DNA of 12,940 bases from a virus (Duplodnaviria > Heunggongvirae > Uroviricota > Caudoviricetes), in IMG/VR virus record IMGVR_UViG_2563366820_000007. One strand, given 5' to 3'. The translations under genes were made by a program, and so were the position numbers. The notes below the pieces were generated by a model, which saw only the letters and a list, made by a program, of their open reading frames with translations, was not told the origin of the DNA and ran no database searches. This document shows, in pieces, positions 922 to 10,653 of the stretch; the stretch's first letter is position 1; each line of letters begins with the position of its first letter.

Positions 922-1219
922 CACCTTAGGAAATCTTAGGGGGCTGGTTGACACTTTCCGGCTTAAGGCCTTAATAAATCTTAATATCGCAGGTTGACAC
1001 ACTTGACACTTTTTCACGAAAAACCTTAACAAAACTTAACCATCCCTGGCATTTCTAAGCATGGCAACTTGACACTTTTCGCGATTTTTTCGGTTTTTTG
1101 ACGTGGTAAGTCTGGCGCAAAGCCAGTAACGACAGGGGTTACAGCGAGGTTGACACTTTTTCGCGTTCAGAGTGTAAAGTGTCAACCCGGCGGACGGCCT
1201 GACTTGACACTTTTTCGCG
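922..1219. repeat. array of degenerate direct repeats with core TTGACAC(T)TTTT(T)CGCG
   Basis: TTGACAC at 948, 994, 1003, 1069, 1150 and 1204, an inverted copy GTGTCAA at 1179, and a degenerate TTGACGT at 1097. The 16-mer TTGACACTTTTTCGCG is exact at 1150-1165 and 1204-1219. Interleaved second motif CCTTAnn-AAAT-CTTAnn at about 925, 968 and 1023. GGTTACAGC also recurs at 902 and 1137. Confidence 0.7.
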
Positions 1220-2499: not shown

Positions 2500-3078
2500 T
2501 CATGCCCCCGCGAGGCTTGCAACGTTAATTTTGACCAGGCGACGGGGAGGGATTTTGAAGGCGTTCAGCCAGACGTTCGGATCGCCCTGATATTCAGTAA
2601 TACGACGACCAGCTTCATCCATTCTTACGGTTTTACCCAAATGGCCCGGCGTGTTTTCCACGGCCCACTGAGCACTTTCCTGAGCAGCCTTGTAAATCTG
2701 ATCTTCCAGCACCGCCAGCGTTGCAGAATCTGAAACGGAACGAATATCCACATCACTGAATTTTTTAGCCAGCTTCTGTGCGCCAATTAATGCACGTTTG
2801 CGGTAATCCATCGACTTTTCACCAGCAAACGGGGCCGGAGCGCGACGGCCCATATTGCTGTATGCGGAATCCGCTTTAGCCTGGGCTTCTGCCAGTGAGG
2901 ATTCATCTTCGACTGACGCGACGATGTTTTGATTAGCGTTATCCTCTTTTATGAAATCCTGTGCGGGGATCGCATTCAGAATTTCGATAATCTCCTGCGG
3001 AGTGCTGCCCTGCGACTCTGACAGAGCGTTAACCACCTCCATCAGTTTTAATCGCAAATCTTCTTTGCTTGCTGGCAT
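2500..3078 (-). CDS. hypothetical protein, 192 aa
   Basis: ORF track 2500..3087; start preferred at MPASKEDL (ATG 3076-3078) with strong GAGAGGTGG upstream. Family not recognised. Confidence 0.55.
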   Translation of the reverse strand: MPASKEDLRLKLMEVVNALSESQGSTPQEIIEILNAIPAQDFIKEDNANQNIVASVEDESSLAEAQAKADSAYSNMGRRAPAPFAGEKSMDYRKRALIGAQKLAKKFSDVDIRSVSDSATLAVLEDQIYKAAQESAQWAVENTPGHLGKTVRMDEAGRRITEYQGDPNVWLNAFKIPPRRLVKINVASLAGA

Positions 3079-3117
3079 TTTTACCACCTCTCTTTTTTCA
3101 CCAAAAAATCACGACCA

Positions 3118-4307: not shown

Positions 4308-4321
4308 GCTTTGCCCCATCG

Positions 4322-4575
4322 TTACAACTGTCTACCGTATTAATACATCGATAATTAATGATTTTTACTAAATGGTAGACAGTGTAGATAGTTAAAATAA
4401 AAATTTTAAAAATGAACCCATAACTATCTGTTTTTATATACCCCCCCGTGGTTTAGAAATATAAAATAAACTGTCCACCTCTCTACCACATTAAAAATAC
4501 CTATATAATTCAAAACATTAATTAGTAGATGGTTGGTAGAGGGTTAAGTGTATCTGTCTACCAACCGTCTACCTT
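4322..4575. promoter_or_regulatory. AT-rich control region with GTAGAC-containing inverted repeats
   Basis: GGTAGACAGT at 4374-4383 and its reverse complement at 4326-4335, which lies in the 5' leader of the ProQ-like gene. Large inverted repeat GTAGATGGTTGGTAGAG (4524-4540) / CTGTCTACCAACCGTCTACC (4552-4571). Confidence 0.45.
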
Positions 4576-4661
4576 TACGTTTCAGCTTATAAATTTCGTA
4601 TTATGTTCTCCAACGGCGCTGATATAACATTCTGTTTTCATTTTTAACATCCATGATTTTT

Positions 4662-5055
4662 TAATTCCTCACCTGCTGCACAGTGAGAATTTATGAAGTT
4701 AATAACAATATGATTTTAAATATATTTTTAAGCACTCACTTTTTAATCCTTATATATACGCAAAAGTGAGGTAAATAGTTAAGTTTTAGTTAATATCTTG
4801 CATGGTGTGTTTTTTAACCTACCTGTTATTTTTATTACCTCATTTCTATTAACTCACCATTCCTCACTTTTGTTCCTCACTTTTTGTTATTCTTGTTCTG
4901 CTCCTCAGTCGTTTTCTTTATTGTTGTAATATGTTGTTTTGCAATGTGTTTTTAACTCCTCACTTTTTGATCTATATACAGGTGAGAAAGTGAGGAAAAC
5001 AGGGATGATTTTTAAATATTCCCTTCCCCCTCACTTTTACGCCTCACTTTTTACA
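4662..5055. repeat. iteron array, putative origin of replication
   Basis: At least 7 direct copies of CCTCACTTTT(T) at about 4735, 4862, 4875, 4968, 5029 and 5042, with degenerate copies at 4668 and 4838. Inverted copies AAAGTGAGG at 4762 and 4987 and GTGAG at 4683. AT-rich spacers. The last iteron overlaps the rep stop codon (5051-5053). Confidence 0.7.
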
Positions 5056-9337: not shown

Positions 9338-9535
9338 TCAGGTAGCTGTTCCGCGTGATTCCGCAATACGCTGATTAATCCACTCGTCAATTTCACTCTC
9401 AACGAAAGCAATCGCTCGCGAGCCAATTTTAACTGATGCAGGAAATTTACCTTGCCCCATAAGGCGATAAATCCATGCCTTGCTATATCCAGTTCTACGC
9501 TGAACTTCCGTTAAACGAATAAGCGTATTTGACAT
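9338..9535 (-). CDS. alpA: AlpA-family transcriptional regulator / excisionase-like protein, 65 aa
   Basis: LTEVQRRTGYSKAWIYRLMGQGKFPASVKIGSRAIAFVESEIDEWI matches the AlpA (Phage_AlpA) pattern. GAGGT sits 4-5 nt upstream of the ATG. Confidence 0.85.
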   Translation of the reverse strand: MSNTLIRLTEVQRRTGYSKAWIYRLMGQGKFPASVKIGSRAIAFVESEIDEWINQRIAESRGTAT

Positions 9536-10527: not shown

Positions 10528-10582
10528 CGCACACCTCTGCGCCCTCTACCGTAGTGGCTGTGCCAGTCCGCAGAGGTGTGCG
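10528..10582 (-). promoter_or_regulatory. perfect 14-bp inverted repeat (hairpin) covering the ribosome-binding site of the 256-aa gene
   Basis: CGCACACCTCTGCG (10528-10541) and CGCAGAGGTGTGCG (10569-10582) separated by 27 nt. In the minus-strand mRNA the 3' arm contains GAGGUG directly upstream of the AUG at 10526. No U-tract follows, so it is not a typical intrinsic terminator. Confidence 0.6.
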
Positions 10583-10653
10583 GATTTTCGGGAGCGACCC
10601 TAGACACAGCCTTTTCTTAATCGCTCAAAGTCTACTACTGTATACTCAACCAG

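Follow-up and report, generated by a model that had tools for sequence, protein, structure and literature searches.

A repeat array beside a Nu1-like winged helix-turn-helix gene is a candidate pac-like packaging site of an Escherichia coli phage satellite

The IMG/VR record IMGVR_UViG_2563366820_000007 holds a stretch of viral DNA of 12,940 nucleotides (hereafter, the window), which by its gene content is a phage satellite of the phage-inducible chromosomal island (PICI) type, in line with an earlier note on the sequence. We studied an array of short repeats spanning approximately positions 924-1219 of the window, next to a gene encoding a protein of 174 amino acids (aa). The explanation that best fits the array is that it is the packaging site of the satellite, a pac-like site built of two kinds of protein-binding element, and we assign this reading a probability of about 0.55. 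One kind, repeats of TTGACAC, would be recognized by the 174-aa protein; the other, paired motifs that we term doublets, resembles a DNA element within the small terminase gene (terS) of prophages related to Escherichia phage Rac-SA53. The evidence comes from the position of the array, its linkage to the adjacent gene, the likeness of the doublets to terS of helper-type phages, and co-occurrence with such prophages in E. coli genomes.

Two interleaved motifs make up the array

All seven copies of TTGACAC in the window are confined to positions 948-1210, six of them direct and one inverted, as the earlier note had described. Dinucleotide-preserving shuffles contained 1.43 copies on average, and 0 of 200 reached seven. 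The two exact 16-mers reported there were also recovered (TTGACACTTTTTCGCG, at both 1150 and 1204; the copy at 1003 differs by one base), and a perfect 12-bp inverted pair, GGTTGACACTTT-N16-AAAGTGTCAACC, lies at 1148-1187. Interleaved with these sites are doublets phased by 10 bp, of the form xyTAAG-N4-xyTAAGG, which appear on the + strand as CCTTAGGAAATCTTAGG (924-940), CCTTAATAAATCTTAAT (969-985) and CCTTAACAAAACTTAAC (1024-1040). They correspond to the interleaved motif that had been written as CCTTAnn-AAAT-CTTAnn, which is thus real; a fourth, degenerate doublet, CCCTGGCATTTCTAAGC inside 1044-1062, had been missed. The GC content of the array is 45-48%. Its components and the adjoining gene are:

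948, 994, 1003, 1069, 1150 and 1204, + strand: direct copies of TTGACAC
1179-1185, - strand: inverted copy of TTGACAC
924-940, - strand: doublet, allele CC, CCTAAGATTTCCTAAGG in gene orientation, two 6-mers 10 bp apart
946-957, + strand: site 1, GGTTGACACTTT, proposed binding site of the 174-aa helix-turn-helix (HTH) protein
969-985, - strand: doublet, allele AT, ATTAAGATTTATTAAGG in gene orientation
992-1012, + strand: sites 2 and 3, abutting, GGTTGACAC-ACTTGACACTTT
1013-1040, - strand: doublet, allele GT, with flank, GTTAAGTTTTGTTAAGGTTTTTCGTGAA in gene orientation
1044-1062, - strand: doublet, allele GC, ATGCTTAGAAATGCCAGGG in gene orientation
1067-1078, + strand: site 4, ACTTGACACTTT
1076-1131, no strand: conserved non-repeat block, TTTTCGCGATTTTTTCGGTTTTTTGACGTGG...CTGGCGCAAAGCCAGTAA, kept between E. 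coli and Yersinia arrays
1148-1187: palindromic pair, site 5 at 1148-1159 (+ strand) and inverted site 6 at 1176-1187 (- strand), 16 bp apart
1202-1219, + strand: site 7, ACTTGACACTTTTTCGCG, separated by 14 bp from the 174-aa gene stop codon
1233-1757, - strand: gene of the 174-aa protein, whose residues 1-42 form a Nu1-type winged HTH and whose C-terminal domain is alpha/beta and specific to the satellite

The array was found in 165 of 5,426 complete E. coli genomes, always on the chromosome and usually once per genome (median, one place), and no Rfam family lies within it. Thus, it is not a dispersed repeat, and an origin from a repetitive extragenic palindrome (REP) or insertion sequence (IS), which had been raised as a possible objection, is not borne out. 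Across 28 distinct arrays closely related to this one, every TTGACAC copy is invariant, as is site 1 wherever it is present, and the DNA between the sites varies by substitutions, deletions of units and a tandem repeat of the 8-mer CTGGCAAG. This 8-mer, located between the palindrome and the last TTGACAC (in relatives of window 1188-1201), occurs in one to nine copies (loci L088, L048, L070, L039 and L022), and therefore the spacing from the palindrome to the last site is free to vary. An equivalent palindromic pair with a variable centre lies 3′ of the gene in five loci (L015, L099, L100, L096 and L105). The TTACTGGCTTTGC part of the block at 1076-1131 is kept in Pantoea too, and the block is a candidate cleavage or bending region.

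The TTGACAC sites are linked to the gene of the 174-aa protein

The 174-aa protein had been labelled TerS-like and Nu1-like. The label suits its first ~42 residues, which do resemble Nu1, but the protein is not a full TerS homologue. It matches phrog_57, the lambda Nu1 family, through residues 1-42 only (1.6e-7; Nu1 itself scores 1.3e-76), and RppA, the validated protein of the satellite EcCICFT073, matches the same family through residues 7-47 only (3.9e-8). When the two proteins were compared directly by BLASTP, only the HTH aligned, at 36% identity over 25 aa. A confident AlphaFold model (pLDDT 88) has an N-terminal winged HTH and a separate alpha/beta domain. A tblastn search of 50,697 phage records reported no phage homologue of the protein, none beyond the HTH was found in BFVD, and by hhalign the protein was unrelated to helper-type TerS; for RppC, no sequence match was found in the PDB at E ≤ 1. 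The 174-aa family is widespread in Enterobacterales and essentially unannotated. Across 43-44 homologues the first 41 residues, including the recognition-helix region VSRQTVYDW, are invariant or nearly so, and identity in the remainder goes down to 36%.

The earlier note had advised looking for the 16-mer TTGACACTTTTTCGCG in related elements, and a scan of IMG/VR indeed yielded 91 loci of two kinds. Those of the first kind carry the same array, with four to six direct copies and one inverted copy. Those of the second kind belong to a different island family, encoding a D5-type primase and a 41%-identical homologue of the 174-aa protein, and have a single palindrome, TTGACACTTTT-N15-AAAAGTGTCAA, 18 bp past the stop codon of the homologue. 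We then measured the linkage of gene and sites in nine loci from E. coli, Klebsiella, Serratia, Pantoea, Enterobacter and Yersinia, which include three different replication modules. The 10-mer AAGTGTCAAC (≤1 mismatch) occurred 32 times between -20 and +700 bp of the homologue stop codon, all at 0 to +513, and only six times in the remaining ~100 kb. The linkage of gene and sites, together with the invariance of the sites and of the recognition helix, is the signature expected of a DNA-binding protein with cognate sites, and a protein-binding role of the array, coupled to the 174-aa protein, is very probable. We propose that the protein is a packaging specifier that reads the TTGACAC sites.

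Homologues of the protein were seen also in Klebsiella islands (L096-L098) that are apparently inserted among late genes of a myovirus-type prophage. In L097 a fragment of a capsid gene lies downstream, and the islands of L096 and L098 contain tail-related genes (Dit-like, Apex-like) together with a DUF5681 gene directly behind the sites.

The doublets match an element inside terS of Rac-SA53-type phages

The terminase of Rac-SA53 consists of a Terminase_2 TerS and a Terminase_6N TerL, as in headful packagers. Its terS contains GATAAGAAATGATAAGGTTTTTCGTG, and at the same place in related phages, SPF_0923 and vB_EcoS-683R6 among them, there is ATGCTTAGAAATGCCAGGGTTTTTCGCG. Window positions 1044-1062 are identical to the latter at 19/19 bases, and the 14-mer TAAGGTTTTTCGTG at 1015-1028 is identical to terS of Rac-SA53 (14/14). 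When the array was compared to 67 distinct terS loci, the longest exact match had 19 bases; the maximum was 17 in 2000 shuffles and 14 for other pieces of the window. In all phage records, 19/19 matches were found only in terS of the Rac-SA53-type group.

To describe the variation of this element we surveyed 80 terS loci from IMG/VR, in which it is found at one codon position, encoding R-[LM]-[LI]-R-N-x-[KR]-V. Five alleles were recorded:

GCTTAG-AAAT-GCCAGG, 49/80 loci
CCTAAG-AAAT-CCTAAG, 19/80 loci
GTTAAG-AAAT-GTTAAG, 8/80 loci
GATAAG-AAAT-GATAAG, 3/80 loci
ATTAAG-AAAT-ACTAAG, 1/80 loci

The first two bases of the half-sites covary (GC/GC, CC/CC, GT/GT, GA/GA), and this covariation is paid for in paired amino-acid changes (L..A, L..P, L..V, I..D); the Arg codon of the element is always the rare AGA. 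The covariation at the cost of amino acids indicates that the terS element is constrained as DNA, and not merely as codons. The pac sites of headful phages are often located in or beside terS (PMC11417361), and we infer that the element within terS may be the pac site of these phages.

The doublets of the window represent the CC, AT, GT and GC versions, four of the five terS alleles, and close relatives of the array carry GA as well. That four distinct dinucleotides would all fall within a set of 5/16 by chance has, by simple arithmetic, a probability of ~0.003. The doublet at 924-940 has the half-sites of allele CCTAAGAAATCCTAAGG (19/80 loci); the nearest terS allele to the doublet at 969-985 is ATTAAGAAATACTAAGG (L180); the GT doublet (1013-1040) corresponds to GTTAAGAAATGTTAAGG (8/80 loci); and the doublet inside 1044-1062 corresponds to the commonest allele (49/80 loci). 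A doublet allele of the Serratia array, GGTAACAAATGGTAAC, was not traced to a phage terS, as an IMG/VR scan gave chance matches only.

The same terS genes (L122-L201, e.g., L124:300-370) contain four to seven TGCGCA hexamers, spaced 9-15 bp apart and located ~230-290 bp upstream of the doublet. In L158 three TCGCGA hexamers stand in their place, and this version resembles the TTTTTCGCGA flank of the satellite TTGACAC sites. Hexamers and doublet together look like a two-part pac region inside terS.

The array co-occurs with Rac-SA53-type prophages

We counted the array and the Rac-SA53-type terS in the same 5,426 complete E. coli genomes, using terS of the lambda type (Nu1) as a control. Numbers of genomes with both features were obtained by subtraction from the either/or counts:

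Array: 165 genomes
Rac-SA53-type terS: 893 genomes
Either array or Rac-SA53-type terS: 958 genomes
Both array and Rac-SA53-type terS: 100 genomes (27 expected)
Lambda-type Nu1 terS (control): 1,228 genomes
Either array or control terS: 1,336 genomes
Both array and control terS: 57 genomes (37 expected, by arithmetic)

The odds ratio for the array and the Rac-SA53-type terS was 8.7 (Fisher p 7e-39), and that for the control terS was 1.8. The isolate behind the window (IMG taxon 2563366820) contains an array (L004) identical to that of the window over the ~230 bases compared, plus such a prophage (L162).

The satellite also encodes proteins related to this phage group. Two ORFs that lie just beyond the 174-aa gene jointly match phrog_6216/DUF2213, and one of them, of 223 aa, is 54% identical to a head-module protein of Escherichia phage Rac-SA53. 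In Rac-SA53-type phages the phrog_6216 protein is encoded between the portal/head-morphogenesis genes and the likely capsid gene. These two ORFs link the satellite to the Rac-SA53-type phage group.

A possible packaging mechanism

Taken as a packaging site, the array would work as follows. Once the satellite has been induced and has replicated, the 174-aa protein, whose gene lies immediately upstream, would coat its own sites (seven sites of the GGTTGACACTTT type, one inverted and pairing with its neighbour), reading them through its winged HTH. The helper small terminase, held at the four doublets, copies of the DNA element inside terS of Rac-SA53-type lambdoid prophages, would together with the 174-aa protein nucleate the helper terminase on satellite concatemers, and the helper large terminase would cut nearby and fill heads with satellite DNA. 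We infer this assignment of proteins to motifs, and a start of packaging at the array, from the sequence relations described above.

A more tentative extension, which we consider possible and rather doubtful, is that the array serves as a 'master key', offering several helper pac alleles so that one satellite is packaged by Rac-SA53-type phages of differing specificity. The phage pac element would lie within terS, where the codons specify a residue that is hypervariable (D, V, P, T or A), and a change there would alter the site and possibly a DNA-reading residue of TerS together, a self-referential switch of specificity that the satellite would track by retaining every version. The Nu1-type protein and the TTGACAC sites would replace the second, phage-specific half of pac, the TGCGCA hexamer cluster.

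Several observations weigh against the array being a packaging site. The co-occurrence counts ignore clonal relatedness, and the terS search took partial matches, with only 86 genomes covering ≥80% of the query. The description of the doublets as pac mimics depends on the position of the phage element inside terS and on its covariation as DNA, and the doublet spacers are ATTT or TTTT in the satellite vs. AAAT in the phage. In some islands that have the HTH gene and sites of the TTGACAC type, the doublets are of another kind or none of these alleles is present (class B, L015; Klebsiella, L096), and the Pantoea and Klebsiella phages PdC23 and Chronis share the head-module protein but have a different TerS and no doublet. 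The C-terminal domain of the 174-aa protein is without detectable relation to TerS or Rpp, and the winged HTH fold is common to Xis, Cox, BldC and RdfS. These proteins, which act as regulators or as recombination directionality factors, likewise bind arrays of repeats, and the fold class does not separate terminase types from excisionase or regulator types. Finally, no cleavage site could be defined.

Alternative explanations

The main rival is that the array is regulatory. In this explanation, which we hold to be unlikely, the 174-aa protein is a regulator like Cox, BldC or Xis that polymerises on the TTGACAC repeats and blocks or promotes transcription that reads through from the late operon to the accessory (defence) genes downstream and on to the last gene, and the doublets bind a second regulator. 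The fold class fits, as Cox, BldC, Xis and RdfS all bind arrays of direct repeats; there are weak family matches to excisionase and RacR, and one homologue is named 'Repressor' in UniRef. The array is located within a transcription unit, just upstream of a hotspot of cargo genes (AbiEii/AAA_15, OLD-like, DprA-phosphoribosyltransferase, KAP NTPase), and a weak promoter-like site lies on the minus strand at 898-870. However, the array is unchanged whether a cargo gene, the last gene or either of two other kinds of flank comes next, no copy of TTGACA forms a sigma-70-like promoter, and regulation leaves unexplained the identity of the doublets to terS, the set of alleles and the co-occurrence with the prophages (odds ratio 8.7). 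The narrower suggestion of the earlier note, that of several operators controlling the adjacent AT-rich cargo gene, was not supported, since that gene is absent from most relatives and the array is kept with three other kinds of left flank. Still less probable, in our view, is that the array is an interference decoy, whose doublets, aided by the 174-aa protein, titrate the helper small terminase from the phage pac, with packaging of the satellite starting elsewhere or needing no specific site. The evidence for a link to the helper speaks equally for this explanation, several alleles in one array would suit broad interference, and Rpp is known both to block phage packaging and to promote PICI packaging (PMC6739421). 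Yet if terminase is bound at a pac-like site of a replicating satellite, packaging would be expected to start there, which makes the decoy hard to separate from a packaging site, and the window yielded no further candidate for such a site.

A role in recombination directionality, with the protein as an excisionase and the repeats as its sites in the int-distal arm of attP, is very improbable. The array is indeed near the int-distal end, and the sites of lambda Xis, too, lie in the arm far from int. Nevertheless, the distance from the array to the island end varies from ~0.1 to ~1.9 kb, with variable cargo between (at least 0.9 kb of cargo and last gene beyond the array in the window, ~1.5-1.9 kb in the related genome L001, ~100-400 bp in some relatives), and a role in the attP arm fails because of this variation. 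Neither motif has copies near int, the int-alpA RNA is located next to int, and a 65-aa ORF already occupies the slot of the small HTH regulator. The doublets were likewise considered as integrase arm sites and rejected, as they have no copies near int; the doubled attP motif of HE-PICIs is of a different sequence (PMC10111431). Least credible of all is a replication origin with iterons. Short repeated motifs in a non-coding stretch could suggest one, but a classical AT-rich iteron region with CCTCACTTTT (29-37% GC) is found at ~4800-5050, beside the gene of the RepA-type helicase, where PICI origins are normally located (PMC6092414). An origin at the array fails because a proper iteron origin exists elsewhere, and the array, with its GC content of 45-48%, is tied to the HTH gene across islands with three replication modules.

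The earlier note had proposed, as one of two possibilities, a pac- or cosB-like packaging site. As a packaging site in general, this remains the best fit; as a cos or cosB site in the lambda sense it fails, as the entire window lacks both lambda cosN and P2 cos and the likely helpers have headful-type terminases. The placement agrees in part, in that the array adjoins the 174-aa gene; it is on the 3′ side, and not upstream as cosB is to Nu1. In a check for lambda-type cosQ and cosN, GGGCGGCGACCT gave only chance-level matches with three mismatches, none of them near the array, and was found exactly at both cos sites of EcCICFT073; the best local similarity to lambda cos scored 26, where the shuffle maximum was 28. 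These results rule out a cos site of the lambda type. The window also shares two short stretches with lambda, TTTCCGGYTTAAGGCSTT and TTTGACGTGGT, which lack colinearity and were judged to be chance. Window 954-971 (TTTCCGGCTTAAGGCCTT) agrees with lambda 38-55 at 16/18 bases, and window 1096-1106 is an exact TTTGACGTGGT, which in lambda lies upstream of cosQ; both are within chance expectation. No phage copy of the 431-bp region was found by BLAST at E 1e-5, and the part at 1085-1235 gave chance matches only. Three further candidates were discarded: sigma-70 promoters built from the TTGACA copies (none qualifies), the palindrome as an intrinsic terminator (it has no T-run), and the ends of satellite-sized metagenome contigs as packaged termini (not informative). 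L001 has no att repeats of ≥16 bp.

Comparison with known packaging systems

As a packaging site, the array would work in a similar way to Rpp with cosB and to the pac mimic with GpsA/GpsB of the PICI-like element (PLE), and it is a member of neither family. Rpp steers the terminase towards a cosB that is specific to the PICI (Fillol-Salom et al., 2019, PMC6739421). The system of EcCICFT073 and ours are both found in E. coli PICI-type satellites, in the slot before the conserved last gene; both have a small protein whose likeness to Nu1 is limited to the N-terminal winged HTH (a phrog_57 match of ~41 residues) and a satellite-specific recognition sequence beside its gene. They differ in that the 174-aa protein has no similarity to RppA or RppC beyond the HTH and a different C-terminal fold, the window lacks lambda cosQ and cosN, the site lies on the 3′ side of the gene, the recognition elements take the form of explicit repeats in multiple copies, and the likely helpers are headful phages with a Terminase_2-type TerS rather than lambda or phi80. 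On the cosB side of cos2 of EcCICFT073 (L106:8130-8260) we noticed three copies of CCGGACAT(G/C), and on the cosB side of cos1 GGTGACAC; these might represent the R elements, as yet undefined, of PICI cos sites.

PLE relies on a 14-bp mimic of pac and on packaging specifiers of its own, GpsA and GpsB (Boyd and Seed, 2024, PMC11417361). In both systems a short stretch of a helper packaging region, which in our case is a candidate region, is copied exactly (14 bp in PLE, 19 bp here), and one or more specifiers, here a proposed one, are encoded nearby. The two systems are unrelated in host, helper and proteins, PLE has a single mimic where the array has four allelic mimics, and the pac region of ICP1 is intergenic and experimentally supported, whereas the phage element here is inside terS and unmapped as pac. 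Lambda cosB (R3, I1, R2 and R1, with gpNu1 and integration host factor) is similar in having several short sites for a Nu1-type winged HTH, one of them inverted, with a second kind of site interleaved; the array has no adjacent cosN, a different sequence and more copies, and comes after the gene and not before it. In P1 pac and SPP1 pac, clusters of short repeats flank the cleavage region. The likeness is in repeat clusters over 150-300 bp, but the motifs differ and no cleavage region is defined here. The TerS of Staphylococcus aureus pathogenicity islands (SaPIs), with its SaPI-specific pac, parallels the proposed system as a satellite specificity factor with a cognate site in the satellite and use of the helper large terminase; it is a complete small terminase, whereas the 174-aa protein shares with it only the class of DNA-binding domain.

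For E. coli-type PICIs, packaging piracy has been worked out so far only with lambda-like cos helpers and Rpp, and the recognition elements in PICI cosB were never delineated. The array would represent a second solution, with explicit and testable recognition elements, for a widespread unannotated family across Enterobacterales. Its apparent helpers are headful-packaging prophages present in ~1/6 of complete E. coli genomes, and a candidate pac site with allelic specificity is indicated inside their terS. As the array adjoins a hotspot of anti-phage defence genes, packaging of the island would bear on the spread of these genes, and the array may be useful for engineering packageable cargo.

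Satellite context and neighbouring genes

The window contains a tyrosine integrase gene adjoining tRNA-Gly, the int-alpA RNA, and genes for an Ant-like protein, a RepA-type helicase, PerC-like and ProQ/FinO proteins, the two phrog_6216/DUF2213 ORFs and the 174-aa HTH protein. Features outside the array are:

1-219, - strand: conserved last gene of PICIs, which in many relatives starts directly at the array edge
242-826, - strand: AT-rich 194-aa cargo ORF, inserted between array and last gene, outside the conserved module
1764-2435 and 2500-3087, - strand: two ORFs jointly matching phrog_6216/DUF2213
10543-10610, - strand: int-alpA RNA (Rfam RF02996, 48.4 bits), immediately downstream of the integrase gene

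The 65-aa ORF mentioned above (9338-9535) is in the slot where L001 is annotated with a small HTH regulator. The synteny of the window with EcCICFT073 and EcCIIHE3034 is clear. The gene order of EcCICFT073 is capsid, decoration, cos1, rppA, cos2 and conserved last gene; in EcCIIHE3034 a Nu1-like TerS occupies the slot of rppA, and in the window this slot is occupied by the 174-aa gene and the array, followed by the cargo ORF and a short homologue of the last gene. The N-terminus of the last-gene product, MTITEADMLEMIRSIAGI, resembles MTEAEILRLIRRVAGIS of EcCICFT073 as judged by eye (MAFFT did not align the N-termini).

The 194-aa cargo ORF gave no family matches and is absent from most related arrays. 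The site beside the array is a variable cargo hotspot, occupied in the window by this ORF; in other loci we found there AAA_15/AAA_21 (AbiEii-like), OLD-like TOPRIM, DprA with a phosphoribosyltransferase-like gene, and KAP NTPase (L015:10281-12524, L105:6414-8162, L099:7260-8806, L102:3507-4877). The phrog_6216 protein of the phages is 430-545 aa long, with DUF2213 and a weak likeness to head maturation protease, and in the satellite there are separate ORFs of 223 and 195 aa, which might represent a split gene, a pseudogene or a pair that remodels the capsid.

The AT-rich non-coding stretch at 4320-5050 (29-37% GC), which adjoins the gene of the RepA-type helicase, contains numerous CCTCACTTTT iterons at ~4800-5050 and separate GTCTACC/GGTAGAC repeats at 4320-4580. 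It is probably the origin of the satellite plus a second cluster of binding sites. In another locus (L110:5025-10196), a related island lies directly beside a P2/186-like prophage (CI repressor, CP76, Fil).

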